Sequence record: MK327936.1
Length of the DNA: 64,000 nt
Reading direction: 5' to 3' (one strand)
Origin: Escherichia phage vB_EcoM_G2540
Made by a program: the position numbers and the translations under genes. A model generated the notes under the pieces. It saw only the letters and a list, made by a program, of their open reading frames with translations. It had not been told where the DNA came from and made no database searches. The first letter of the stretch is position 1. Every line of letters starts with the position of its first letter. Shown here piece by piece: positions 4,976 through 59,406 of the stretch.

Positions 4976-5576
4976 GGTGTCTTTTCCATCCTAATTTAGC
5001 TGCTTTTGAAACCAGTTCTTTAATTTTTCCTTTTGTCCATTCAGGACCAGGAGGTTCATGACATAACATTTGCTTAACTCCGTTATTATACCATTTTTTA
5101 CCTTTATTATGTGATGAAGCTTTAAATTTATTTGACCTTCCTTTTACATAACCTTCTGGAATATAAGGCAAAAAGGCAGATTTTCCTGTTAATGGATCAT
5201 GTGAATGTATATTTCCTTTACAATTATGAGAACCATATAATGGATGATTTTGTCCTTTATTATCTCTTCCAAATGAACCTTTTGGAGCAGCATATGACAT
5301 ATTAAAGAATAATGGATTTTTAACTGCATCATGCAATCGTTGATAATATAACTCGCATTTAATAGCTTCTTCACGCGTATCAAATTCAGCTAAAATGCAT
5401 GAATCAAATAAGTGAGGATTATCTGAAAGCTCTTTATTATAAATTTTCTTATACTTTTTAGATAAAACTGAACCATGATATCCAGCTAAATGCCTATCTA
5501 AAGACGTAGATCCAATATAAAAAGGAGGAAGTTTATCTCCACTATATATTGTTAAATAAGTTATATATTTTTTCAT
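4953..5576 (-). CDS. GIY-YIG (Seg-like) homing endonuclease candidate with NUMOD-like C-terminal motif
   Basis: N-terminal YITYLTIYSGDKLPPFYIGST resembles GIY-(10 aa)-YIG; C-terminal GPEWTKGKIKEL resembles NUMOD3; basic C-terminus. Confidence 0.5.
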   Translation of the reverse strand: MKKYITYLTIYSGDKLPPFYIGSTSLDRHLAGYHGSVLSKKYKKIYNKELSDNPHLFDSCILAEFDTREEAIKCELYYQRLHDAVKNPLFFNMSYAAPKGSFGRDNKGQNHPLYGSHNCKGNIHSHDPLTGKSAFLPYIPEGYVKGRSNKFKASSHNKGKKWYNNGVKQMLCHEPPGPEWTKGKIKELVSKAAKLGWKRHHENTKLG

Positions 5577-5737
5577 ATATCAAGAACCGTCATTGAAATG
5601 CAAAATAAAATTATTGAAATAAACCCATCTGGTGTGCTAAAGAACCCAATCCAACATGCTTTAGTGAATAGATAAAATGCAAGAAAAAGTATCACATATC
5701 CAAGAAATATCATTATATCAAACTCCGTATAAAGCTA

Positions 5738-5755
5738 AAGGGCCGAAGCCCTTTA
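5738..5755 (-). terminator. Hairpin at end of a-gt (AAAGGGC-CGAA-GCCCTTT)
   Basis: Perfect 7-bp stem with tetraloop overlapping the a-gt stop; T-rich on both sides. Confidence 0.4.
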
Positions 5756-6955
5756 TTTTGTAATAATGTCAAACTGTTCTTTAAAGCAGAAGCTTGAATC
5801 TTGATGCTGATACAAAAATTCATATGCTTTTTCACGCTCACGGTCATAAAGAGCTCGGTCAGATGACAGTTCTTTAATACGTTCAAATGTTGATTCCATA
5901 TCATTTTCATCAAACCAAATGATACCGCTATCATGCGAGGTCAAAGGAGTATTATCAACACGGAATTTTAAATTTTCGCCAGTAGATTTCCAAAATACCG
6001 GAATTGTTCCACATGCACCAAGCTCGAGATGAGTATATTCTAAAGAGCGCTGTAGATATTTTTTATCCAACTTACTCAACTGATAACCAAATCCGGATTT
6101 ACTCATACGTTCAAGCATTTCGCTATTTACATAACGATCGAGAATTTGCGTTGGTAAATTAGGAGCAATTTTAATTTGGTCTACTTGATGAAGACGATAA
6201 TACTCGTATGGAATTCCTTTTTCTTTAATAGGAATGAACGCTGGAGAACGTTCCAGACCTTCCATAATAGTACTTAGTCCTGCAGGTTTAAGATGTTTTT
6301 CGTGAAAATCAAACATCTGATAAAAACCTTTCCATGTAGTCGTACGACCAATCCAACGGTTGACATTCATGTTAATTTCAGAAACATCTTTCCAGTAGGT
6401 TGACCGAACCTTCGCAATATCCATAGGAGGCTGAAAGTTATATACGGTCGGCGCTTCTTCAATATCATCAAACAGAGAAACAGTTTCTGGATACCATTCT
6501 TTCATCAGAACTTTATTAAAATCACCATTATCAGAATGGCTAAAAATAACATCAGCTCGACGAACAGTTTCTTCTAATCCCAAATTTCGACGCAAAGAAA
6601 GAGAAGAATGGTCATGTTGATAAACTACAACACGAACCGAAGGTTTAATGTTATCAATAATTTTTTTATAGTTATTAATAGTGTCTTCTTCAACTGAAGT
6701 AGCAGGAACTGAATTGATAATTAGAATATCACAATCATTTACCAGCTTAAGTGTTTTATCGTATTCTTTTGCCAATAAAACCGGAATTGAAAATGATTTA
6801 TAATCATGCGCACAGTTACGAGTAAATGATTTATCTTTGGCATAAACCAAAGTTACTTCATGACCATTTTTAATAAACCAATCACGTTGCTCGAGTGAGA
6901 ATTTTGTTACACCACAACCTTCAAGACCTCGAGCCATAAAAATACATACTTTCAT
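5753..6955 (-). CDS. a-gt: DNA alpha-glucosyltransferase
   Basis: 400 aa; N-terminus KVCIFMARGLEGCGVTKFSLEQRDWFIKNGHEVTLVYAKDKSF matches recalled T4 a-gt. Confidence 0.85.
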   Translation of the reverse strand: MKVCIFMARGLEGCGVTKFSLEQRDWFIKNGHEVTLVYAKDKSFTRNCAHDYKSFSIPVLLAKEYDKTLKLVNDCDILIINSVPATSVEEDTINNYKKIIDNIKPSVRVVVYQHDHSSLSLRRNLGLEETVRRADVIFSHSDNGDFNKVLMKEWYPETVSLFDDIEEAPTVYNFQPPMDIAKVRSTYWKDVSEINMNVNRWIGRTTTWKGFYQMFDFHEKHLKPAGLSTIMEGLERSPAFIPIKEKGIPYEYYRLHQVDQIKIAPNLPTQILDRYVNSEMLERMSKSGFGYQLSKLDKKYLQRSLEYTHLELGACGTIPVFWKSTGENLKFRVDNTPLTSHDSGIIWFDENDMESTFERIKELSSDRALYDREREKAYEFLYQHQDSSFCFKEQFDIITK

Positions 6956-7007
6956 TTAATATCCTCTTTGTTTTGGTTTATTTTACCAAAAATTTATAAA
7001 GCAATAT

Positions 7008-7025
7008 AGGAGCCGAAGCTCCTAT
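7008..7025 (-). terminator. Putative hairpin terminator (AGGAGC-CGAA-GCTCCT)
   Basis: Perfect stem with tetraloop; interrupted T-run. Confidence 0.35.
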
Positions 7026-7198
7026 CCGCATAATACGCCATACAAAGGCTCATTAGAACTTCTAAATTTTATGCGCTTATATGTTATAGTTCCTTCTGCT
7101 TTAGCTTTATCATAAGACTCTTTAAAGCGTCTCATCATTTCCTCTTTAGAGGAACGAATTTTATTATAATCTATTTCAGAAGTCTGGATGTTCATCTT

Positions 7199-7405
7199 TC
7201 ATAACTGCCACCATTTTTTGACTTGATAAGAATCAACCCACACTTTCATATTAGGGTCTGCTCTTACAATAGGAGGATTAACTTCTTTAATTGAACTATC
7301 ATGGTATTCTTTTTCAGAAATTTTCACACAAAGATGACCATTCAAAGATTCAGTAAATCCTGCATTAATTTTAAGACGCTTGAATTTTACGTGTGTAAGC
7401 ATCAA
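7199..7405 (-). CDS. Hypothetical small protein
   Basis: ORF track only. Confidence 0.3.
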   Translation of the reverse strand: MMLTHVKFKRLKINAGFTESLNGHLCVKISEKEYHDSSIKEVNPPIVRADPNMKVWVDSYQVKKWWQL

Positions 7406-7688
7406 TCATATCCTCAATTTGCGATCTAGTAGTCTTCCAAAGAATACTGATGAGTTCATCGTTATATGGCTGTTTTAGAATATCCCGACTTTTCTTGATA
7501 GCATATTCGTATTGAGCAAAATTATTATTTTCAGCCGCAATCTGAGCATACTTATAAAGACGATTCAGTTCGCGTTTGTTTTTAGACAATAACTTATTTG
7601 CTTTTCTTTCTGCTTCAAGACGGTTCTTTTCTTCAATAGAAGAAATAAGCTTTTCCACTTCATCATTAATTTCGGGTTTATCAGTCAT
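7371..7688 (-). CDS. Hypothetical protein
   Basis: 105-aa ORF, charged and helical. Confidence 0.35.
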   Translation of the reverse strand: MTDKPEINDEVEKLISSIEEKNRLEAERKANKLLSKNKRELNRLYKYAQIAAENNNFAQYEYAIKKSRDILKQPYNDELISILWKTTRSQIEDMIDAYTRKIQAS

Positions 7689-7689
7689 A

Positions 7690-7908
7690 TTATTTCTCTA
7701 ATATAAAATAAAAATCATCATCTGTTAAATGATACCTGTAATTTAATTCTACACCATTAGATTTAAAAGCGGTATCATACGGATTTTCTGGATCAATATC
7801 AATGTCAAGAGCTAAAACTTCCCTGAGATACATTTTAAGTAAATAGGGAATAGCTTCAACTTCAGGTATTTCTTCCAAGAATCCGGAGAGGTTAATCGTT
7901 AGCCTCAT
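7690..7908 (-). CDS. Hypothetical small protein
   Basis: 72-aa ORF immediately downstream of gene 55. Confidence 0.35.
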
Positions 7909-8455
7909 ATAAAAAATCCAAACTAGGAGAATCGTCTACAACACTTTTCTTTTCAGCCCCCGGTGTTCTATAGGTTGATTCTTCGTAATGCGTCATTTTA
8001 TCGTAGATGTCTTGAATAAAAGTTTCATCTACTAACGCAACCATATCGTCGTCACGGCTGTCATAGACATTGTGAACGAAGTAACTATATTTCTTTGCAA
8101 CTTCCTTACGTTCTTTTTTAATACGTTGGACGAATGCATTAAAACAAGCTTGAGTTATATACGCATGTGGGTTTTTATATTTCGTTTCATCAAAATTATG
8201 AAGCCCCTTAATAGAAGCTTCTATACCATCTGCAATCATTTCTTGTTTCCAAGACTGGGTGTATCCTGAAAAGTTGAAACGTTTAGATAAGCCTTCTGCA
8301 ATAAGCATAATGGCTAATCCGATAGTATCATTTTGACGAACTACTTTATTTGGGTCTTTATTATTTGCTAATTCTGTTTTCCAATCAATAATAGCTTGTA
8401 AAAGCTCTTTATTGTTTACGTAATTATATTTAGGCTTAGTTTCTGACATTTTCAC
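7892..8455 (-). CDS. 55: Late-transcription sigma factor gp55
   Basis: 187 aa; size and position match T4 gp55. Confidence 0.8.
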
Positions 8456-9015: not shown

Positions 9016-9338
9016 ACCTTAGCAATTTTCAGGTCAGCAAATTTTTTCTTGCGTTGATTTTTCATACGACGAATAGTTTTATCGGAAATTTCATGCTTTT
9101 GATAAGCTTTAGATTCTACGCCAAAAGCTTTAACATCAAATTCCGACAAGATATATTGAACCAGCAATTCACGGACAGTATTACGTCCAATTTTCTGATC
9201 ATTCTGTTTCATCGTCTGATGAAGCTCTTTTTCCCATTTATCCAAAATTTGAGGAGTTACAATATCGCCTTTTTCTAGCAAAGAAACTACTTTATCATAT
9301 GCGTAAGAATTGATGGCGTTTTTAATTTGAATAGTCAT
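9012..9338 (-). CDS. Hypothetical protein
   Basis: 108-aa ORF. Confidence 0.4.
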   Translation of the reverse strand: MTIQIKNAINSYAYDKVVSLLEKGDIVTPQILDKWEKELHQTMKQNDQKIGRNTVRELLVQYILSEFDVKAFGVESKAYQKHEISDKTIRRMKNQRKKKFADLKIAKV

Positions 9339-9369
9339 ACATTATCCTCAATTGCGTTAAAATTTTATT

Positions 9370-9392
9370 ATCCAAAAAGGGCCGAAGCCCTT
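9370..9392 (-). terminator. Rho-independent terminator
   Basis: Minus strand AAGGGC-TTCG-GCCCTT followed by TTTTTGG. Confidence 0.6.
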
Positions 9393-9591
9393 AGCTAAAC
9401 TTTTTGGCACCCTTCCAGCCTTCATACATCATTGCGGCTGATATTAATATTGCTCCTGAGCAACTTGAATATTTGTGATTCCAAAACCAGTTTAGAAAAA
9501 CTTCGTCATCAATACCTTGTGCTATCATATTTTCAAAGAACTGACGACGAGCTTCGGCAATTCGCTGCGATAATTTAGATTCAGGATTCAT
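9391..9591 (-). CDS. Hypothetical small protein
   Basis: ORF track; terminator hairpin just downstream. Confidence 0.35.
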   Translation of the reverse strand: MNPESKLSQRIAEARRQFFENMIAQGIDDEVFLNWFWNHKYSSCSGAILISAAMMYEGWKGAKKFS

Positions 9592-9807
9592 TTAAATTTT
9601 CCAATTACCGTTTTCATCAATGAATTTAATCCAGTCATTTACTGACCACTTAGTTGTATCGCCTTTTGGAGTAACATTTAAAGTATATAGCCCTTGCTTA
9701 AAAAGCATTCGTTTGATATTCATAATTTCCTCAGCTGTAACGATAGCACTCGTTTGATTTACGTTTAGCAACTCGTTGAGAAGTATTATAATCAAAATCA
9801 TCGTCAA
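9592..9807 (-). CDS. Hypothetical small protein
   Basis: ORF track. Confidence 0.3.
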   Translation of the reverse strand: MTMILIIILLNELLNVNQTSAIVTAEEIMNIKRMLFKQGLYTLNVTPKGDTTKWSVNDWIKFIDENGNWKI

Positions 9808-10024
9808 TGTAAACTGATTTTTTCAACTTTCTTACTTCACCACGTAATTGGCGATTTAGCTCATCTTTAACTTCTGAATCAATACCTTTCATTCTACGCC
9901 ATTTATCTGAGCGAAAAATGTTTTCAACCATATCTTTATGACTTACCCCATCAGGAGCTTTACGCTTTCCGAAATAGTCATAATCACGCACTTTTAAGTC
10001 TTTACGACGATACGTTTTACCCAT
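9731..10024 (-). CDS. Hypothetical basic protein (start taken at internal Met)
   Basis: ORF track 9731..10063 trimmed to Met 14. Confidence 0.3.
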   Translation of the reverse strand: MGKTYRRKDLKVRDYDYFGKRKAPDGVSHKDMVENIFRSDKWRRMKGIDSEVKDELNRQLRGEVRKLKKSVYIDDDFDYNTSQRVAKRKSNECYRYS

Positions 10025-15034: not shown

Positions 15035-15244
15035 TTAATTTCGCAATTTATTAAGTTCTTCATAATCAATCCAGGATTCTAATCCTGATGGCAAATCAGA
15101 TTCAATTTCCCAAAGAAGTTCTTCAATTTTATGAAGACGATCTAGTTCTTCAGCAGGAATAGTAACCATTGACGGAGCTCTTGCTACATTAATATCGTAA
15201 ATCATATTTACCCCAGTTTGACCATACAATCGCCGTATTTCCAC
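15035..15244 (-). CDS. Hypothetical small protein
   Basis: ORF track. Confidence 0.35.
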   Translation of the reverse strand: MEIRRLYGQTGVNMIYDINVARAPSMVTIPAEELDRLHKIEELLWEIESDLPSGLESWIDYEELNKLRN

Positions 15245-15423
15245 TTAGAAATAGACTTTTCACCGTTAGAATAATAAACTTCAAGTTTAGCACGATTATT
15301 TTTAATTTGAATAACCTTTGCTGTCATCAAAGTTCCATACCCATAATAAACTGCAACTTCATCACCTACATATACCGCGCTTCCGCGGTAATCGTGAATA
15401 TAGTCAGTTCCTTCGAGCATCAT
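15208..15423 (-). CDS. Hypothetical small protein
   Basis: ORF track; ATGA-type overlap with nrdC. Confidence 0.35.
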   Translation of the reverse strand: MMLEGTDYIHDYRGSAVYVGDEVAVYYGYGTLMTAKVIQIKNNRAKLEVYYSNGEKSISKWKYGDCMVKLG

Positions 15424-15683
15424 TTAAAATATTCTCGCAGTTGGTCAAATCCACCAATATGACTTCCATCAGGAGCAAATACTTGTGGCATTGTCAAACC
15501 AATTTGAGTATCACGACCTAGTTTAGCCAGAAGCTCAGCGATTTTCTCATCATCAAAAACACCTTTTTCCGGCATAATGTTGATAAATTCAAACGGCTGT
15601 TTCTTCACGGTCAAAAGACGTTTTGCATTATCGCAATACACACATTTATGAATGTTGCTATCATAACCATATACTTTAAACAT
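15420..15683 (-). CDS. nrdC: Thioredoxin/glutaredoxin NrdC
   Basis: 87 aa; MFKVYGYDSNIHKCVYCDNAKRLL matches recalled T4 thioredoxin with CVYC active site. Confidence 0.9.
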   Translation of the reverse strand: MFKVYGYDSNIHKCVYCDNAKRLLTVKKQPFEFINIMPEKGVFDDEKIAELLAKLGRDTQIGLTMPQVFAPDGSHIGGFDQLREYFK

Positions 15684-15929: not shown

Positions 15930-16319
15930 TTAATCCAAAATATTATTAGGCATTGGTTGAACACTCACAAGTTCTTTAAAGAACTCAGTAGAATCAGGCA
16001 ATTTAACCATTTCCGGAGCATGCTTACTGAATTTATGTTTACATTGACGGCATTTATATTCAAGCTCTGGTTTACGCCAGTTAATCAATTGAACTTGTTC
16101 AGTACCGCATTCAGGGCAATTAGGAACGTTTTTAGAAGCTCTTTCACGTCGTTCAACCATAGCCATAATAGCATCCCATGCTGGAGGTTTAAAATCTAAA
16201 TCGTCGCAGCCGTGAATCTTTCCACGCATTTCCATATCATCTTCCTCACCAGCCATAATAATTTTAATTAAACTGGAATTACTTGAAGCTGCAATGTCTT
16301 CTAATAAACGCTTTTTCAT
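15930..16319 (-). CDS. Zinc-ribbon protein
   Basis: 129 aa; CPECG...CRQCKH paired Cys motifs. Confidence 0.4.
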
Positions 16320-17245
16320 TTCAATACCTCAATAGCATTACGTAAACCATTTGCTTTTGCATTAAGAGCTTTTAACAATTTGGTGTGTTCTGCAATTTGG
16401 GCTTCAACTCCAATCAAACGGGCATTGAGATATTCACGTTCTTCACTCAGATTATCAACCTTTTCTACTTTAGGCTCTTTTACAACTGTCTTATATGTAT
16501 TAGGGTTCTTCAGTTTAATTAGAATGCGTGAACTGTATAACATTGAATCATTATCTTCGGTTTCGTCATACATTTCTACTACATCCATAATTTTTAACAT
16601 CATGCGGAGTTTATAAGACAACGAACGAATAGTTTTGTTGTGCTTATTAATTTCTTTAGCTGTCATGGTGCCGAGATTACGTGAGTAATAATAAGGAACC
16701 TGGATATTAATTAATACTGATGAACCACCTGGCTTGTGTGTTACTTCATCAGCAATAACCCAGTCCTTAACATGAACTGTATTTGTACGGTCATCACCCG
16801 CGGTAAACAGTTTGCGAGCATGCTTAAAAAGCATATTCACTTGGTCATTGAATTGACAAGCAAATTTATCAGCAAATTTAGTTTCAGGAATGGTAGATAA
16901 CCAATCAGCCAAATGAGTCTTTTTAACATCGTTAACAATAGTAAATTCAACCAAATCGGTTATAGATGTCTCAGATTTAATAAAGCTCGGCTTCATAAAG
17001 TTTTTAATGTTATCGTGAGCTACAGTAGAAGATAACATACGAGAACGTTTAAACCATTCAAGCAAATTACCTAACGAATGAGAATAAGCGTTTTGAGTAT
17101 CTTTACAGATATGATTTTCCTGGCCAACATATTGAAGGAAATCACGAAGAATATTATTGATTACTGCTCTGTGTCCTATCTGATAATTACGGTGTTTAGT
17201 AATAAGACTGTCAAAATAATCAATATAATGTTTACGAGTTTTCAT
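16316..17245 (-). CDS. Uncharacterised protein with C-terminal coiled coil (tandem set member 1)
   Basis: 309 aa; starts MKTR; last ~40 aa heptad-like ([37 protein letters not shown]). Confidence 0.5.
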   Translation of the reverse strand: MKTRKHYIDYFDSLITKHRNYQIGHRAVINNILRDFLQYVGQENHICKDTQNAYSHSLGNLLEWFKRSRMLSSTVAHDNIKNFMKPSFIKSETSITDLVEFTIVNDVKKTHLADWLSTIPETKFADKFACQFNDQVNMLFKHARKLFTAGDDRTNTVHVKDWVIADEVTHKPGGSSVLINIQVPYYYSRNLGTMTAKEINKHNKTIRSLSYKLRMMLKIMDVVEMYDETEDNDSMLYSSRILIKLKNPNTYKTVVKEPKVEKVDNLSEEREYLNARLIGVEAQIAEHTKLLKALNAKANGLRNAIEVLK

Positions 17246-17297
17246 GTTCTTCTCACTTGGTTAATGGTTTATACTCCGAGCCATCCTTGGCTTTAAA

Positions 17298-18329
17298 TTA
17301 CTTAATTAACTGTAAAGCTTGTTCAAGACGATCAAGACGATTAACGGATTCTTCCCAAATCTTTTTAGCCTGCTCATATTCTTTCTGCGCTTTATTAGAA
17401 ATTTCTAGAACTTCTTTATAAGCTTTTTCTAGTGCAATAACTTCTGGACGAATTTCTACCGGTTCAGGAGAATCATCAAGATTATCCATTAGTTCCTCAA
17501 GGGTAGTTTCTTCTTTAGGAGTATTCACAATTTCATCACATTTTTGTTGGTAAATTTCTTTATCAGTCGGTGAGTACGCACACTTTACTTCACGAAGACT
17601 AATTATAATTTTATATCCTTCCCATCCACACATATTTTTGAAAGGATATGTATGAATACTTTTTACAGTTTCCATACAGCCCAAAGCCGTCTCTAATTGA
17701 TGAGTTATAGTGCTAGCAATTGAGAAAAATTTATTAATGTTCTTTTGGTTAGTTTCTGGTGTAAAAAATCCATAATTCACAAAAATAGCTACTTTATTTT
17801 TATCAAGTTCATATTCTTTTATGATAATCATATCAGAAGCCAAAGGATGAATTTGACGATAATCGCCATAGCATAATTTAGAAGCTGATTTTAGAATTTG
17901 CTTCTTAAAAAGTCTGAAATTACTAATCCAACGACGAGTAAAAATATTCTCAGGGTCTTCTTTATTATTAAGATGATAAGAATTAACATCACCGAACCAA
18001 TTATATCCTACTACATCTTTGGTTCGTTTAATTTCTTTCCCAAAATTACCAAGAATATCCCGATTAACCAAATATGAAAGAAGACGAGACTCTTTAAAGG
18101 TTTTCTTGATAACATCTTTATCTACACGGCTAGAAATTTTACGAATTTCATGAATAAATTTAGTAGAAGAAACAATACTTGCATCAACACTATTGAGCCA
18201 TTGATTGATAATAGAAAGAACGATATTTTGACCAAACATCGGTATAGCTTTATCATCAATAACGCTATTGAATGATTTGATATATTCGTTACGAGTCATA
18301 TTAATCTCCTCATTAGAAAGTAAGAACAT
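17298..18329 (-). CDS. Uncharacterised protein with C-terminal coiled coil (tandem set member 2)
   Basis: 343 aa; C-terminal ALEKAYKEVLEISNKAQKEYEQAKKIWEESVNRLDRLEQALQLIK. Confidence 0.5.
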   Translation of the reverse strand: MFLLSNEEINMTRNEYIKSFNSVIDDKAIPMFGQNIVLSIINQWLNSVDASIVSSTKFIHEIRKISSRVDKDVIKKTFKESRLLSYLVNRDILGNFGKEIKRTKDVVGYNWFGDVNSYHLNNKEDPENIFTRRWISNFRLFKKQILKSASKLCYGDYRQIHPLASDMIIIKEYELDKNKVAIFVNYGFFTPETNQKNINKFFSIASTITHQLETALGCMETVKSIHTYPFKNMCGWEGYKIIISLREVKCAYSPTDKEIYQQKCDEIVNTPKEETTLEELMDNLDDSPEPVEIRPEVIALEKAYKEVLEISNKAQKEYEQAKKIWEESVNRLDRLEQALQLIK

Positions 18330-18356
18330 TATACCACATCCTTGTGGCGAAGTAAA

Positions 18357-19382
18357 CTAGTTTAGTGCATTTAGTGCATTGTTCAGTTTAGAACGTTGCT
18401 TTGTCAGATTTTGAACCCTTGACTGAGCTTGTTCTAACACCTTTTCAGCTTCTAGCACTTCATTGGTCGCTTTAACGAGTTCATCATCTACTGCCTTAAG
18501 AGACTTCTCAATCGCGCCAGCGTGCCATTTTTCTACAGGTTTAAGACTCGGATTTTCAACAGGAAGAAAATTCACTTTATTGAATTTCCATGCATCATTA
18601 TTACCTGAACTATACATCCAAAATTTAGAATCGTTTGATGAGCAATTGGATAAATTTAAATTTAAGTTATCTTGCACTTCTTGCTTTTTCTCTTGCGGGA
18701 CTTCGTCCTTTCTCAAAAAATCGTATTTAAATGAAACAATCATATCAAGTTCATATGTTGTCGTATCTAACTTAAATCGTTCAAAACGAGGTAAAATCTT
18801 AGATTGAACAGCAGCAACAACATCCATATACTTAAATGCTTCTGTCAACTGTGATTTAAGGCATTCACAAATTGAAAGAGAATTTTTTGTATTAGGTTTA
18901 AAGCTAATTCGTGCAGTTCTGTTATTTTCTTTTAATGGTCTTACTTCCATCTGAAGAGTATAACCATCAAATTTCAGATTCTTTAAGTTAATATCAGAAC
19001 CTTTTAATCGACTAGCCGTCGACAAAATTTGCTTTAATTGTTTACGGAATAGAGCAATAAATCTCCACTCAATACGATAATGATTTGGATTAAAAAATCC
19101 TGTTGATAAATCAACCTTACTCTGACCAACGCCTTGAACAAATAGAGGATTTTTATAATCAATAGTTTTACAGAAATCGGTGAGCTGCTCACGAGCCGTC
19201 ATTTGTGTAATATACCCCGCTTTACTAAAATGACGTAACCATTCACTGCTATTCATATATTTAAAGTGAATATCACGATTAACTTTATCAGGGTCTAAAT
19301 TATTTTGGCACAAAAATGTCATAACATCACGAGTATAACTGGCATTACGAACCATATCTTCAATTTGAGAACGAGTTTTCAT
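18357..19382 (-). CDS. Uncharacterised protein with C-terminal coiled coil (tandem set member 3)
   Basis: 341 aa; starts MKTR; C-terminal LEAEKVLEQAQSRVQNLTKQRSKLNNALNALN. Confidence 0.5.
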   Translation of the reverse strand: MKTRSQIEDMVRNASYTRDVMTFLCQNNLDPDKVNRDIHFKYMNSSEWLRHFSKAGYITQMTAREQLTDFCKTIDYKNPLFVQGVGQSKVDLSTGFFNPNHYRIEWRFIALFRKQLKQILSTASRLKGSDINLKNLKFDGYTLQMEVRPLKENNRTARISFKPNTKNSLSICECLKSQLTEAFKYMDVVAAVQSKILPRFERFKLDTTTYELDMIVSFKYDFLRKDEVPQEKKQEVQDNLNLNLSNCSSNDSKFWMYSSGNNDAWKFNKVNFLPVENPSLKPVEKWHAGAIEKSLKAVDDELVKATNEVLEAEKVLEQAQSRVQNLTKQRSKLNNALNALN

Positions 19383-19390
19383 GGTGTTCC

Positions 19391-20293
19391 TTAAAATTTA
19401 AGTAAATCAACGATTTTAATTAATTTTTCACGCTCAGATTTAGCTTTACTACTCAATCCAGATAGTCTGAAAATTTCATCATCATATTGCTGAATAGAAA
19501 TATTTAGCTCTTCAATCTGTTTATTAAAATAATCAATTTGTTCAGAATGTTTTTCGTTACTACGAACTGGTACAGGTTTTGTAGGCAATTTAGTTGAACT
19601 GGATTCATCCGGGCGATAAATTAAAATACAACTTGAACCAATAGGGCATTTTGCACCAGATGAATATTCTAATGTTCCGGCTTCTTTTAAAACTTCAAAA
19701 GCTAAACAGAGATGATGCCCCATATTGACATAATCTGTAGAGTGAGCTCTGATGTAATAATCATCTCCACGAGTACTAAATTTAAAGCATTTAAGGTCTT
19801 CTGTATTATTGGTCTTAAAAATCATTTGTTTATCTAGACCTTTAGCTAATCGAGCGCCTAATGCTAATAATCGTCGTTGATTTTCCCACAAATCCGCAAT
19901 CATTTGGTCAAATGATAATTTCGGCATTAGTCGACCATAAAGGTCATATCCTTTATTATAATTGCGAAGGATTTCACTCGCATTAATACGAGACAACGCT
20001 CCAATTTTATTAAGGGCTTTCATGATGCGATTAGATAAACCCATTCCAGATCCGTTTGTTCGTTGCAAATGTTTATCTAATCCAAACCCAATATCAACTT
20101 TAAATTTATCTAAAATTTCAGCATGAACATCTCTGTCAATAACATTCAAATCCAAAGTTGGGTTAAATCTATGAAAAAATTTATCTGGCTCTCCACGACG
20201 AAGTACAGTCCATTCATTTAATTTTTTATTAACTAAAGATTTAATTACTGCATTGACATTATTAATTACTACTGACATATTTTTCTCACTCAA
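19391..20293 (-). CDS. Uncharacterised protein with C-terminal coiled coil (tandem set member 4)
   Basis: 300 aa; C-terminal IEELNISIQQYDDEIFRLSGLSSKAKSEREKLIKIVDLLKF. Confidence 0.5.
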   Translation of the reverse strand: MSEKNMSVVINNVNAVIKSLVNKKLNEWTVLRRGEPDKFFHRFNPTLDLNVIDRDVHAEILDKFKVDIGFGLDKHLQRTNGSGMGLSNRIMKALNKIGALSRINASEILRNYNKGYDLYGRLMPKLSFDQMIADLWENQRRLLALGARLAKGLDKQMIFKTNNTEDLKCFKFSTRGDDYYIRAHSTDYVNMGHHLCLAFEVLKEAGTLEYSSGAKCPIGSSCILIYRPDESSSTKLPTKPVPVRSNEKHSEQIDYFNKQIEELNISIQQYDDEIFRLSGLSSKAKSEREKLIKIVDLLKF

Positions 20294-20749: not shown

Positions 20750-21277
20750 TTATGCGAGTACCGTCTTTAACCGTTCTTCAAACTTCCGAAGAGTATTCTG
20801 GCGTTCAGCTCTTTGCTTTTTGTAAGTTTCAATACGCTCTGAAATGAGAGTGTATCGTTCATTTACTGATTCTTTCATAAAATCAGGAATTTCACGAGAA
20901 GCTTTAATCTCGTCAAATTTATCAATAACTGCTTGCTCTTCAGCAATTAAGTTATCATACATCAAAATATCTTTCTTGATGAACTCAATATCTTCTTGAG
21001 TTACACGAGATAATTTAGATGCTTTATCCTTTTTGTACTGTTCGTTAGTATCACGAGACCAGTGTAATGTACGATTTTTATTCGTATTCTTGTAAATTTC
21101 TACAATACCAATCTCATCGATAATAACGATCCAATTCCAACGAGATTTGTAAATTTGTCCTCCGTCAACCGTGATTTCACCTCCGATTGAGATGTCATTA
21201 AAGAACTTGCTTTGTGCTTCAGATTTAAATTTACCATCGTTGTAATTTACCAGGTTGAAAATATCTTTAGCGTTCAT
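20750..21277 (-). CDS. Hypothetical protein
   Basis: 175-aa ORF; GGAGG Shine-Dalgarno; early promoter upstream. Confidence 0.45.
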   Translation of the reverse strand: MNAKDIFNLVNYNDGKFKSEAQSKFFNDISIGGEITVDGGQIYKSRWNWIVIIDEIGIVEIYKNTNKNRTLHWSRDTNEQYKKDKASKLSRVTQEDIEFIKKDILMYDNLIAEEQAVIDKFDEIKASREIPDFMKESVNERYTLISERIETYKKQRAERQNTLRKFEERLKTVLA

Positions 21278-21742: not shown

Positions 21743-22729
21743 TTATTTCAGAAGAGTAACCTCAGCGATTTCTTCCCAACCGTTTTTGTCGGTCATAATA
21801 AAGTCAGCAAGATAAAGAGCAGTACGCAGTGAAACATTGCGTAAACGATTAACATTAACTTTCATCCATGATAATGCTTTATAAGTTTCTTCATCAGAAA
21901 GACCGCGCTTTTGCATCATGTCGGTTGAAAGAATAACATCTTCAACCCTGACCATAATTTCTTCATTAGTGTGAACACCCAAATCTAAATAAACTGAGCG
22001 GGACACTAATGCTTGTAAATGTGGAGCAAGTTTAGTACCGCGGTCTAATTCGCGGTCAATGTCAACGTTTGTGATAAAAACAATCGTTCCTTTAAATTCA
22101 AACTCACGGTCAATGCCTTTTTCTTCTAAGTAAGAAGATGCAGTGCTCCAGCAGACTTTACGGGTCTCTCCAGTGTCCAGAGCAGCTTTTAGAAGATTAA
22201 GAATGTCCATATCAGAGAAAACATCCACATCATCAATCAAAAGGACAGAGTTCTCTTCACGATTATACCAAAGCTGCTCATAAAGACCAATACCAGAGAT
22301 TTTACCATTAATGCTTTTATATTCAATGTATCCAATATCGTTTGCTTTATTTAAAGCTTTATCTAAAGAATACGTTTTACCAATACCTGCTGCGCCAGAG
22401 ATAATTAATGAACGAATATTTCCATTAATAATACCATTCGTCATCATTCCCATAACATTAAATCTTTTATTAATGCGGGTTTTCATATCTTCATATGATT
22501 CTTTAACTTCTTCAACTTTTACACCATCATATGAAATATCTGATTTGTAAACCCAAACACCACGACGTTTACCGTCAATTTCAACAAAAACTTTACCATC
22601 TCCTTGTGCATCTACCGGAGCATTATCTGGGAACCATTCGCCTAAGAGCTCAAAAGTTCCAGAGATTTCTTTACCGAAGTAGATACCCTTATTGATAGTT
22701 ACAGTTTTCATTTTATTCTCCAATCTCAC
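21743..22729 (-). CDS. P-loop NTPase (AAA-like) protein
   Basis: 328 aa; Walker A GAAGIGKT, Walker B LLIDDVD. Confidence 0.6.
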   Translation of the reverse strand: MRLENKMKTVTINKGIYFGKEISGTFELLGEWFPDNAPVDAQGDGKVFVEIDGKRRGVWVYKSDISYDGVKVEEVKESYEDMKTRINKRFNVMGMMTNGIINGNIRSLIISGAAGIGKTYSLDKALNKANDIGYIEYKSINGKISGIGLYEQLWYNREENSVLLIDDVDVFSDMDILNLLKAALDTGETRKVCWSTASSYLEEKGIDREFEFKGTIVFITNVDIDRELDRGTKLAPHLQALVSRSVYLDLGVHTNEEIMVRVEDVILSTDMMQKRGLSDEETYKALSWMKVNVNRLRNVSLRTALYLADFIMTDKNGWEEIAEVTLLK

Positions 22730-22780: not shown

Positions 22781-23044
22781 TTATTTTAACGTTCGCCAAA
22801 TTTTTACTGCTTCACGGCGAGATACTTCTACAGCTCCAAGTTCTACAGCTTTTTGGCGTCGGCGAGCGTGTAAGTCATAATGTTTAATGCGTTTATCTTG
22901 AAACCAAGAACGTTTCATTCCTATTGCTTCTGCCATTTCATGAAGCTCTTCAATATCTCCATCAGTGAACATATGACAATTTTTAGTTGGATGACCGCGA
23001 AGTTTCCATCCATGATTCATTAAAACATCTACGTAAACTGTCAT
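22781..23044 (-). CDS. Hypothetical small basic protein
   Basis: 87-aa ORF. Confidence 0.4.
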   Translation of the reverse strand: MTVYVDVLMNHGWKLRGHPTKNCHMFTDGDIEELHEMAEAIGMKRSWFQDKRIKHYDLHARRRQKAVELGAVEVSRREAVKIWRTLK

Positions 23045-57948: not shown

Positions 57949-59406
57949 ATGATTGAATTAAAAGATTTACCTTTTGTTGATAGCGTTCCTGGCGAAGGTC
58001 AGGAACGTATTTCATGGATTAAAAATGGTGAAGAAATACTAGGAGCTAGTACTAAGTATGGAAACGATGGATCAATGAATAGACCAACTGTTTCCGTGTT
58101 TAAAAATGTCGAAGTTCTTGATGAAAATGTGGGAATTCTTAAAACTGCCGTTGAAACATCGCAGGAAGATATTAAAACAATTCAAGGCATTTTAGATGTA
58201 TCAGGAGATATAGAAGCACTATCGCAGATCAGCGTTAATAAAAATGATATATCAAATTTAAAGACACTCACAAATGAACACACTGATATATTAAATGGTA
58301 CAAATACCACAGTTGACCGCATTCTTTCTGATATAGGTCCATTTAATGAGCAAGCAAATTCAGTTTATAGAACGATTAGAAATGATTTGCTGTGGATTAA
58401 AAGGGAATTAGGGCAATATGCTGGGCAAGATATTAATGGTCTTCCTGTTGTAGGAAATAACAGCACGGGAATGAAGCACCGCATCATTAATAATACAGAT
58501 GCTATAACTTCCCAAGGAATACGTCTAAGTGATTTGGAAGAAAAATTTATTGAATCTGATGTAGGTTCGCTTACAATCGAAGTAGGAAATCTTAGACAGG
58601 AATTAGGACAAAGACCATCTTCATTTAGTGAAAGCATATATTCACGTGTGCATAATTTAGATCAAGCACAAATTGATCTAAATTCTGAAATTAAATTTAT
58701 AAAAACTTCTATTGGATATCCAGGAAATACTTCTATAATCACAGATGTCAATGTCAATAGTCAAGAAATTTCAGCTTTAAATGATGAACTAAATAAAAGC
58801 GGAGGTGTTAAACAACGATTAACTATTATCGAAACATCGATTGGTTCAGATGATATTCCTTCTAGTATTAAAGGTCGAATTAAAGATAATACTACTTCTA
58901 TTGAATCTTTAAATGGAATTGTAGGTGAAAACACCTCGTCTGGTTTAAGAGCCAATGTTTCATGGTTAAACCAAATTGTTGGAACTGATTCTAGCGGTGG
59001 ACAACCTTCTCCTCCTGGGTCTCTTTTAAATAGAATTTCAACAGTTGAAACTTCCGTTAATAGATTGAACAATGATGTTCAAAACTTACAAGTTGAAATT
59101 GGTAATAACAATTCCGGAATTAAAGGACAAGTTGTAGCATTAAATAAATTAGTAAATGGAACAAATCCAAATGGTTCAACTGTCGAAGAACGCGGATTGA
59201 CTAATTCAATAAAAGCTAATGAGACTAACATTGCTTCAATTAATCAAGAGATTCGTAGCATTAAAAGCGATGTATCTTCATTACAAAGGGATGTCCAGAC
59301 TTTACAGGAAGCCGGTTATATTCCTGAAGCTCCAAGAGATGGGCAAGCTTACGTTCGTAAAGACGGCGAATGGGTATTGCTTTCTACCTTTTTATCACCA
59401 GCATAA
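57949..59406 (+). CDS. wac: Fibritin (whisker antigen control)
   Basis: 485 aa; segmented coiled coil; C-terminal foldon [27 protein letters not shown]. Confidence 0.95.

Follow-up and report, generated by a model that had tools for sequence, protein, structure and literature searches.

Introduction

About half of the genes of T4, the best-studied phage, lack a known function. Here we ask whether four consecutive minus-strand open reading frames (ORFs) between nrdC and tk belong together and what their products do; they lie in a 64,000-nucleotide stretch of Escherichia phage vB_EcoM_G2540 (MK327936.1), referred to below as the window. A sequence-only reading had described four uncharacterised proteins of no recognisable family, each with a C-terminal coiled coil and two with an MKTR start, and had guessed at a diversified family of anti-defence or host-takeover factors, to be checked by pairwise profile comparison, structure prediction and presence or absence across T4-like genomes. 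We favour the explanation, with a probability of about 0.6 for the whole of it, that the genes are ancient tandem copies of one gene found only in T4-like phages and constitute a diversified early-gene family of host-range or anti-defence proteins. An anti-defence role has been shown for one member, nrdC.5, and would extend to nrdC.3, nrdC.4 and nrdC.6 on the grounds of paralogy and evolutionary behaviour.

Results

Gene identities and start codons

The window is from a Tequatrovirus. Phage slur04 is 98% identical over the region, for which 656 T4-like records give matches. The four ORFs proved to be orthologues of T4 nrdC.3, nrdC.4, nrdC.5 and nrdC.6, long-annotated genes rather than an unrecognised family, and the gene order nrdC.3-.4-.5-.6-.7 is the same in the T4 reference record NC_000866, a synteny that bears out the location between nrdC and tk. 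As called by the program, the ORFs run on the minus strand at 16316–17245 (309 aa), 17298–18329 (343 aa), 18357–19382 (341 aa) and 19391–20293 (300 aa), as the sequence-only reading had them, with 8 nt between the nrdC.6 stop and the nrdC.5 start.

Two of the called starts, those of the 343-aa and 300-aa ORFs, are probably wrong, judging from sequence context and homologues. The first ATG of the 343-aa ORF falls within the -10 box of a promoter-like site (TTTACT-17-TATAAT, 18356..18328), and the second (18299) is preceded by a GAGGAG ribosome-binding site and is the start used in most homologues, the T4 annotation and the PHROG profile, which gives 333 aa. The 300-aa ORF begins at TTG (20293), and its homologues begin at an ATG five codons downstream (20278), which gives 295 aa. 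After start correction the MKTR observation widens to M(K)TR at the opening of three of the four proteins (MKTRK, MTRNE and MKTRS), nrdC.6 being the one without it. The corrected features are as follows.

16316–17245, minus strand: nrdC.3 orthologue, 309 aa (PHROG 1435)
17298–18299, minus strand: nrdC.4 orthologue, 333 aa from the probable ATG at 18299 (PHROG 1435, Pfam PF26897)
18357–19382, minus strand: nrdC.5 orthologue, 341 aa (Pfam DUF7235, PF23882; 95% identity to T4 nrdC.5)
19391–20278, minus strand: nrdC.6 orthologue, 295 aa from the probable ATG at 20278 (PHROG 2257, Pfam PF26899)
18328–18356, minus strand: promoter-like site in the gap between nrdC.5 and nrdC.4 (TTTACT-17-TATAAT, TG upstream; consensus match only)

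The nrdC.5 protein matches PF23882 with 398.8 bits (cut-off 30) from residues 1–341 to positions 1–307 of 307, and the Pfam search gave no PF23882 match in the nrdC.3, nrdC.4 or nrdC.6 proteins. PHROG 1435 matches the 309-aa protein (E 3e-115) and the 343-aa ORF (E 2e-168), and PHROG 2257 matches nrdC.6 (E 6e-153, alignment from residue 6); PF26897 and PF26899 are precomputed on all nrdC.4 and all nrdC.6 homologues, respectively. The databases place the four proteins in three separate DUFs and PHROGs, which are treated as unrelated.

A proposed superfamily

By profile and bridging-sequence comparison, nrdC.3–nrdC.6 are remote paralogues of one superfamily, and for that reason the reading as a diversified family is now supported more strongly. 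The link between nrdC.3 and nrdC.4 is seen with blastp (E 9e-6) and hhalign (98%, E 3e-13), in addition to their common PHROG. Once Mosigvirus members are added to its profile, nrdC.5 aligns with nrdC.3/4 over its full length (95.2%, E 2.6e-8, 284 columns), and P0233 of Marfavirus matches both the nrdC.4 HMM (1.7e-9) and the nrdC.5 HMM (4.8e-8). nrdC.6, weak in direct comparison, joins the other families via bridging proteins that other T4-like genera carry as single copies. One of these, IME523 gp085, gives a single-domain, zero-bias match to the nrdC.6 HMM (1.2e-9) that spans the core-helix motif and the tail, and it also matches nrdC.5 (8.3e-6) and nrdC.3/4 (1.2e-4). With this protein as the query, phmmer finds the nrdC.6 of the window at 6.8e-6 and later iterations bring in the other three families; across 372 ORFs the iterative search converged on 39 four-family members and 6 syntenic relatives, recovering 45/45 expected ORFs and 0/327 others, with neither fibritin nor pin recruited.

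Similarity persists when the coil is removed: nrdC.5 matches nrdC.3/4 at 83% (E 9e-6), the bridge matches nrdC.3/4 at 92%, and the nrdC.6 globular domain links weakly to other families (P 0.002–0.02), while 12 of 12 reversed-profile controls gave P of at least 0.17. Three weak pairwise alignments are also transitively consistent in register (p300 S101 = p341 T59 = p343 S85). Homology of all four families is supported at the sequence level independently of coiled-coil composition, more weakly for nrdC.6 without its coil. Each protein carries a core-helix motif, and that of nrdC.6, LWENQRRLLALGARLAKGLDKQMIFKT, matches NWRMILTLGSRLCVGSSRELEFKT of IME523 gp085.

16790–16852, minus strand: core-helix motif of nrdC.3, aa 132–152, FNDQVNMLFKHARKLFTAGDD
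17859–17918, minus strand: core-helix motif of nrdC.4, aa 128–147, FRLFKKQILKSASKLCYGDY
18993–19061, minus strand: core-helix motif of nrdC.5, aa 108–130, FIALFRKQLKQILSTASRLKGSD
19811–19891, minus strand: core-helix motif of nrdC.6, aa 130–156, LWENQRRLLALGARLAKGLDKQMIFKT

The helical tail and predicted structures

All four proteins close with a heptad-periodic helix, as the sequence-only reading had proposed. When the 71 ORFs of at least 100 aa in the window were scored for heptad register, six had a C-terminal 28-residue window above the 99th percentile: the four of the array, pin and, as the positive control, fibritin. AlphaFold2 gives a single long helix for nrdC.5 (282–340, pLDDT up to 93), and for nrdC.6 a pair of helices (242–271 and 277–294), a two-helix unit that may pack intramolecularly. 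The tail and the core helix are the most conserved blocks, and the remainder is fast-evolving.

16319–16453, minus strand: nrdC.3 C-terminal module, aa 265–309, heptad-periodic helix
17301–17447, minus strand: nrdC.4 C-terminal module, aa 285–333, PEVIALEKAY motif and a helix ending RLEQALQLIK
18360–18539, minus strand: nrdC.5 C-terminal module, aa 282–341, PVEKWHA motif and one long helix
19394–19552, minus strand: nrdC.6 C-terminal module, aa 243–295, two helices split by SGLSS

Fibritin (wac) has a comparable heptad-periodic helix and is the top scorer in the same heuristic, but the iterative search found no sequence relationship to it. The array proteins carry their coil as a short extension at the C-terminal end of a globular domain, and the array genes, in contrast to fibritin and other phage coiled-coil proteins, are reported to be early (PMC9391042) and are not known to encode virion components.

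Structure prediction was informative for nrdC.6 (pLDDT 78) and not for nrdC.5, whose model (pLDDT 43) is unusable outside the tail, so the structural evidence for a putative common fold comes from nrdC.6 and the bridging proteins. A Foldseek search of BFVD with the nrdC.6 model returned a 335-aa IME523 protein (E 4.8e-7), attributed to gp085 by phage name and length, and seven further 304–335-aa proteins of other T4-like phages, with E 5e-7 to 1e-3 and TM 0.2–0.5 over the range. No solved structural relative was found for this confident model.

Distribution and evolution

Copy number across T4-like genomes differs by genus. Kanagawavirus, Marfavirus and Pectobacterium phage PM2 have one copy of the gene, beside nrdC.2, and in Tequatrovirus, Mosigvirus and Gaprivervirus it appears to have expanded to three or four. 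Content also varies among T4-like phages, with some members missing and others split in T2, SP18 and L004. Within Tequatrovirus, dN is 0.02–0.05 for the array versus <=0.011 for gp49, nrdC, nrdC.8 and nrdC.10, and identity between genera is 27–51% versus 80–91% for gp49, nrdC and nrdC.10 (nrdC.10 in Mosigvirus only). The array dN/dS of 0.05–0.25 indicates purifying rather than positive selection overall. The nrdC.3 of the window is a mosaic allele, with 61% identity to T4 nrdC.3 and 77–80% to the Mosigvirus version.

Known function

T4 nrdC.5 overcomes Dsr1, a SIR2 defence gene of E. coli ECOR17 (Srikant, Guegler and Laub, eLife 2022; PMC9391042). It rescues a T4 deletion mutant on Dsr1-carrying cells, and from a plasmid nrdC.5 alone restores plating specifically against cloned dsr1; Dsr1 is a SIR2 NADase, and nrdC.5 suffices to restore infection of Dsr1 cells (PMC9391042). 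The genes are dispensable on standard hosts, and the same paper places nrdC.5 and the rest of the array among the early genes (PMC9391042). The Dsr1 sensor recognises major capsid proteins (PMC12803255). The experimental support for nrdC.5 is genetic and comes from a single paper (PMC9391042); a literature search found no published function or phenotype for nrdC.3, nrdC.4 or nrdC.6, and no published mechanism for any of the four. Given the nrdC.5 phenotype, the description of four uncharacterised proteins is only three-quarters true, holding for the other three, and the anti-defence guess is borne out for nrdC.5 and extends to its neighbours as a prediction. The nrdC.5 of the window, 95% identical to the T4 copy, would be expected to overcome Dsr1 likewise. 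As nrdC.5 disarms Dsr1 and the four appear to be copies of one gene, the other three are good candidates for a similar job.

Discussion

The proteins appear to be laid out as a globular alpha/beta region of ~240–285 aa in which fast-evolving flanks surround a conserved core helix, a low-confidence and probably flexible linker, and a conserved helical tail of 45–60 residues with heptad periodicity. We propose that the family consists of stoichiometric, non-enzymatic binders produced before the late-gene trigger appears. The variable globular part would pick out a particular host immune protein, which for nrdC.5 would be Dsr1, most plausibly the TPR sensor that detects the major capsid protein, and the conserved tail would serve to oligomerise the protein and add avidity, or to engage a putative common partner. 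nrdC.3, nrdC.4 and nrdC.6 would then be host-range factors directed at other defence proteins or at other Dsr1-type variants. Taken further, and as a speculation that is quite unlikely to hold in all its parts, the array might be an 'anti-sensor' family that tracks the diversification of a bacterial pattern-recognition family. Each paralogue would use its variable globular domain to block its own clade of the TPR capsid-sensor domain common to Dsr1, Avs7 and other effectors, the C-terminal helix would homo- or hetero-oligomerise the paralogues into a single multivalent inhibitor, and the allele swapping in mid-nrdC.3 would be an arms-race footprint.

The genes could instead be true paralogues whose primary role is not immune evasion, acting as early host-takeover or regulatory adaptors that bind a host or phage complex via the tail, with the Dsr1 rescue an indirect effect, for example on trigger timing or level or on NAD+ metabolism. 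Strong conservation of the tail and core helix in all paralogues suggests a common partner over four targets, dN/dS is below 1, the sole functional datum is a genetic rescue, and the array sits amid nucleotide-metabolism and accessory genes. Even so, we consider this unlikely: plasmid-borne nrdC.5 acts alone and specifically against cloned dsr1, the genes are dispensable on standard hosts (PMC9391042), and varying copy number with decay in T2, SP18 and L004 fits a host-specific accessory role better. An enzymatic role linked to the nucleotide-reductase genes around the array, for instance in redox chemistry or nucleotide modification, would account for the 'thioredoxin' label in many GenBank records and for the adjoining nrdC, but the label has evidently spread from the gene names nrdC.N, and NrdC thioredoxin proper is a separate 87-aa ORF (15420–15683). 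None of the four proteins gave a thioredoxin or glutaredoxin match (Pfam E <= 1; NCBIfam E <= 0.1) or any enzyme-family match above threshold (Pfam, NCBIfam), the nrdC.6 model has no solved-structure relative, and superfamily-wide conserved columns are mainly hydrophobic or structural, with no common catalytic motif evident, all of which makes such a role very improbable.

The paralogy itself could be narrower, with three paralogues and an unrelated nrdC.6 that resembles them in size, position and helical tail by convergence or through a shuffled C-terminal module. Direct profile–profile comparison of nrdC.6 with nrdC.3/4 and nrdC.5 is weak (probability 2–11%, P 0.003–0.02), its N-terminus lacks the M(K)TR motif, and Pfam and PHROGs keep it apart. 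This is decidedly unlikely in view of the zero-bias IME523 gp085 match, which covers the core helix as well as the tail in a protein that also matches the other families, the iteration that recruits those three families and nothing else, the full-length Foldseek matches, and the transitively agreeing registers with every reversed control worse.

Three DUFs (PF26897, PF23882/DUF7235 and PF26899; three PHROGs) come together as a single family whose sole characterised member counters a SIR2 immune protein, and this makes nrdC.3, nrdC.4 and nrdC.6 specific, testable host-range candidates. The relatives that Klebsiella, Enterobacter, Edwardsiella and Pectobacterium phages carry in one copy are likewise candidates, which is relevant to the choice and engineering of T4-like therapeutic phages, and the division into a variable region proposed for recognition and a conserved tail gives mechanistic studies of NrdC.5 and Dsr1 a map of domains to work from.

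T4 NrdC.5 is the closest known system. The 341-aa protein of the window is its orthologue, in the same position and with a full-length Pfam match of 399 bits, whereas the other three share the architecture as remote paralogues, below the DUF7235 threshold and in separate Pfam/PHROG families. DSAD1 of Bacillus phage SPbeta is described as an inhibitor of the SIR2 defence protein DSR2, countering a defence-associated sirtuin NADase whose trigger is a late structural protein. We use it as a working analogy, the same kind of stoichiometric block being proposed for NrdC.5 on Dsr1, although target (DSR2 versus Dsr1), host clade and architecture (a helical tail in NrdC.5) differ; the BFVD search with the nrdC.6 model matched no SPbeta protein, in a database that may not contain DSAD1. 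Other T4 accessory host-range or counter-defence genes are tifA (against ToxIN), dmd (RnlA), adfA/61.2 (DarTG) and ipIII, which are non-essential, dispensable on laboratory hosts and needed with a particular defence system (PMC9391042). These are single and mostly small, whereas the nrdC array is a tandem of three or four proteins of ~300–340 aa with a common ancestor and a common helical tail.

Identity of the array

The window belongs to a T4-like phage, genus Tequatrovirus. Over the interval 16316-20293 it shares 98% identity with Escherichia phage slur04, and 656 phage records match this interval. Comparison of gene order with the T4 reference record shows that the four ORFs on the minus strand here are orthologues of T4 nrdC.3, nrdC.4, nrdC.5 and nrdC.6:

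16316-17245, minus strand, nrdC.3
17298-18329, minus strand, nrdC.4
18357-19382, minus strand, nrdC.5
19391-20293, minus strand, nrdC.6

The flanking ORFs encode endonuclease VII, pin and the NrdC thioredoxin, and synteny with T4 places the array within the nrdC-to-tk accessory block. The phage T2 record, in which product names are scrambled, was left out of gene naming. An array of four ORFs, as a sequence-only reading had described it, is confirmed here, with two start codons of the mechanical ORF list corrected. A TTTACT-17-TATAAT site has the first ATG of nrdC.4 inside its -10 hexamer. GAGGAG precedes the second ATG (18299), at which the T4 annotation, most homologues and the PHROG profile start, so the protein is 333 aa long. 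For nrdC.6 the start is most likely ATG 20278, not TTG 20293, which gives 295 aa. The gap between nrdC.6 and nrdC.5 is 8 nt, so the two are probably co-transcribed. The intergenic TTTACT-17-TATAAT site is a candidate promoter to be treated as a lead, given that the promoter scan found 34 sites with 34.7 expected by chance.

Relatedness of the four proteins

Existing classifications divide the four into PHROGs 1435 (nrdC.3 and nrdC.4), 2351 (nrdC.5) and 2257 (nrdC.6), and into three separate Pfam families (PF26897, PF23882/DUF7235 and PF26899). BLAST connects nrdC.3 with nrdC.4 only (24% identity, E 9e-6), and the corresponding family profiles match with 98% probability (E 3e-13). After enrichment with divergent Mosigvirus nrdC.5-like genes, the nrdC.5 profile matches that of nrdC.3/4 with 95.2% probability (E 2.6e-8); the 284 aligned columns run from close to the N-terminus through to the final residue, and the match holds at 83% (E 9e-6) when the coiled coils are removed. 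These profile matches very strongly support nrdC.3, nrdC.4 and nrdC.5 as remote paralogues.

The connection to nrdC.6 runs through bridging proteins of other phages. When the nrdC.3/4 profile was run exhaustively with HMMER against 1.84 billion representative proteins, only 10 matched, with no cellular relative among the classified ones. One of the 10, P0233 of Klebsiella Marfavirus phages, matches the HMMs of nrdC.4 (1.7e-9) and nrdC.5 (4.8e-8), and Enterobacter phage IME523 carries relatives of it. Scored against the nrdC.6 HMM, the 335-aa IME523 protein gp085 gives 1.2e-9 in a single domain with a compositional bias of zero, and the matched domain includes both the tail and the core-helix motif of the globular part (nqrRllalgaRLakGlDkqmtFkt versus NWRMILTLGSRLCVGSSRELEFKT). 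The same protein also matches nrdC.5 (8.3e-6) and nrdC.3/4 (1.2e-4). Profile comparison detects similarity across all four proteins, which the sequence-only reading had grouped by architecture, and structure prediction agrees: the confident AlphaFold2 model of nrdC.6 (pLDDT 78, pTM 0.66), compared with the viral structure library BFVD, matches a 335-aa IME523 protein (Foldseek E 4.8e-7), attributed to gp085 by phage name and length, not by sequence. Seven further Foldseek matches are uncharacterised 304-335-aa proteins from T4-like phages of Pectobacterium, Acinetobacter, Klebsiella, Yersinia and Citrobacter.

A rival reading is that nrdC.6 lacks true homology with the other three. The motifs of the joint alignment are collinear. 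The N-terminal one, M(K)TR..I, is absent in nrdC.6. The alignment also contains a motif, F...LS...A...L.NF, a core helix, F......(I/L)L..(A/G)(S/A)(R/K)L..G...R, and a C-terminal module, P.E..(H/Y), followed by a coil ending (Q)R.(K/R)L..A...LK. Seeded with gp085, an iterative profile search through the 372 ORFs of at least 80 aa in the window plus twelve fetched loci reached convergence after four rounds, having gathered all 39 ORFs of the four families and six syntenic relatives. None of the 327 other ORFs was recruited, and fibritin, pin and nrdC.8 were excluded despite their helical tails; twelve reversed-profile controls gave P of at least 0.17 throughout. Support for nrdC.6 as a remote paralogue of the other three is good but partly indirect, and with its inclusion three DUFs are merged into one superfamily with a defined map of variable and conserved domains. 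As a possible fifth member, nrdC.8 (20750-21277, minus strand, 175 aa) was rejected because its HMM matches have E of at least 0.05 and the gp085 iteration never recruited it. Its C-terminus is helical and rich in E/K/R, with a heptad score at the 98.7th percentile. A 2026 DRT1 paper refers to nrdC.8 only through its transcript, which is listed as down-regulated, and mislabels it a nucleotide reductase, a name for which the sequence gives no support.

Coiled-coil tails

Heptad register was scored in 28-residue windows for the 71 ORFs here that are at least 100 aa long. Only six exceed the 99th percentile in a window at the C-terminus: the four array proteins, pin and fibritin, the last being the positive control as a classic trimeric coiled coil. 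Fibritin (wac) is a 485-aa ORF on the plus strand (57949-59406) with the foldon at its C-terminal end. In nrdC.5, AlphaFold2 predicts one 59-residue C-terminal helix with pLDDT up to 93, which is the only usable part of an otherwise poor model (pLDDT 43, pTM 0.23, from a 23-sequence alignment). In nrdC.6 it predicts two C-terminal helices, at residues 242-271 and 277-294. Given the heptad scores of all four and these helices, the earlier description of a globular region followed by a C-terminal coiled coil is correct. Matches of the nrdC.5 coil to DUF4164, V-SNARE and PgrA were sub-threshold and treated as noise.

Variation among T4-like phages

Copy number differs by genus, from one to four, across the T4-like genomes compared. 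A single tblastn match per genome is found in Kanagawavirus (IME523 and Edwardsiella PEi20), Marfavirus and Pectobacterium PM2, and these relatives adjoin an nrdC.2 homologue where the annotation was inspected. Mosigvirus carries nrdC.3 with divergent nrdC.5-like and nrdC.6-like genes, Gaprivervirus SP18 carries nrdC.4, a split nrdC.5-like gene and nrdC.6, and Tequatrovirus carries all four copies. The broken members could be true pseudogenes or sequencing frameshifts:

T2 (L001, AP018813) 6982-7921, nrdC.4 split into 155+170 aa
T2 (L001, AP018813) 9069-9959, nrdC.6 truncated to 201 aa
Locus L004 6916-7948, nrdC.4 split into 193+158 aa
SP18 (L009) 5038-5942, nrdC.5-like gene in two ORFs

Within Tequatrovirus the array changes in amino-acid sequence several-fold faster than its neighbours (dN 0.02-0.05 versus at most 0.011), under purifying selection (dN/dS 0.05-0.25). 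Between genera, array identity is 27-51%, compared with 80-91% for gp49 and NrdC and likewise, in Mosigvirus only, for nrdC.10. Conservation is highest in the last 30-60 residues and around the core helix, and variation is highest in the N-terminal region and in the stretch after the core helix.

The window nrdC.3 is 98% identical to that of an IMG/VR contig (L005) and 61% identical overall to T4 nrdC.3, with 87-90% over the first 60 residues, 40-57% over residues ~90-270 and 73-100% in the tail. Against the Mosigvirus version it is 77-80% identical overall and 40% over the first 30 residues. With T4-like ends and overall likeness to Mosigvirus, it is a mosaic allele, a pattern that suggests intragenic recombination between genera.

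Residues 30-86 of nrdC.3 (16988-17156), a stretch overlapping the conserved F...LS...A...L.NF motif, weakly resemble the N-terminal core-binding (SAM-like) domain that tyrosine recombinases carry (NCBIfam E 0.002, Pfam Phage_int_SAM_1 E 0.075; both below threshold). The likeness is probably due to chance, and the sub-threshold matches of this N-terminal part to PHL, Phage_int_SAM_1 and XerD were treated as noise.

Function and proposed mechanism

A full-text search for the gene names nrdC.3-nrdC.6 found one functional study, in which T4 clones lacking a gene block lost infection of E. coli ECOR17 and T4 nrdC.5 showed an anti-Dsr1 phenotype (PMC9391042). Dsr1, which has a SIR2 domain, is thought to deplete NAD+. 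According to a 2026 preprint (PMC12803255), its TPR sensor, which Avs7 shares, recognises the major capsid proteins of phages. No paper was found on how NrdC.5 acts, on nrdC.3, nrdC.4 or nrdC.6, or on PF26897, PF23882/DUF7235 or PF26899. The sequence-only reading had called all four uncharacterised, which holds for nrdC.3, nrdC.4 and nrdC.6; nrdC.5 has a published phenotype, and the four belong to the known T4 gene set and do not make up a new family. Its suggestion of a diversified anti-defence family stands as to diversification and, with T4 nrdC.5, includes a proven counter-defence gene; for the other three an anti-defence role is a prediction.

We infer that the window NrdC.5 also neutralises Dsr1. 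The array proteins are probably non-enzymatic binders: no enzyme family matched them, no conserved catalytic motif is evident in the conserved columns of the joint alignment and no solved structural relative was found. Their synthesis would come early, ahead of the capsid-protein trigger; the globular part, which is variable, would recognise a host protein, and the conserved tail may serve oligomerisation or bind a common partner. Proteins nrdC.3, nrdC.4 and nrdC.6 would then be host-range factors directed at further defence proteins or at further variants of the Dsr1 type. The working analogy for NrdC.5 versus Dsr1 is DSAD1, which counteracts DSR2; nothing indicates that the two are homologous.

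Another rival is a shared non-immune function, with the effect on Dsr1 being indirect. A role as enzymes or as a 'thioredoxin' is excluded as far as sequence can tell; the thioredoxin domain is absent from all four proteins. The 'thioredoxin' label is carried by nrdC.2-nrdC.11 homologues in many GenBank phage records and was evidently propagated from the nrdC.N gene names. Capsid mimicry was considered because Dsr1 senses the major capsid protein, and was rejected, with no capsid protein among the BFVD or PDB matches.

Neighbouring genes

15930-16319, minus strand, nrdC.2
21743-22729, minus strand, nrdC.10 (328 aa)
22781-23044, minus strand, 87-aa DUF4031 protein
15208-15423 and 15035-15244, minus strand, T4 gene 49.3 slot, occupied by a different small gene

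The nrdC.2 gene, whose stop overlaps the nrdC.3 region (16316-17245), is the constant neighbour of the nrdC.3-6 superfamily in every genus examined. It encodes 129 aa versus 104 aa in T4 (76% identity), with two CxxC pairs (CPEC...CRQC) and a sub-threshold Zn_ribbon_8 match (26.5 bits versus a cut-off of 34.4). For nrdC.10, only weak sub-threshold P-loop/AAA matches were found, including the STAND-type NTPase nSTAND3 (E 0.0014). Between nrdC.10 and the gene that follows sits the DUF4031 protein (Pfam E 8e-22), at a position where T4 has only the 114-nt nrdC.10-nrdC.11 gap. The product of the gene in the 49.3 slot is a DUF7205 protein of 71 aa. No T4 ORF of the region exceeds about 26% identity to it, and three further Tequatrovirus contigs conserve it at 100%.
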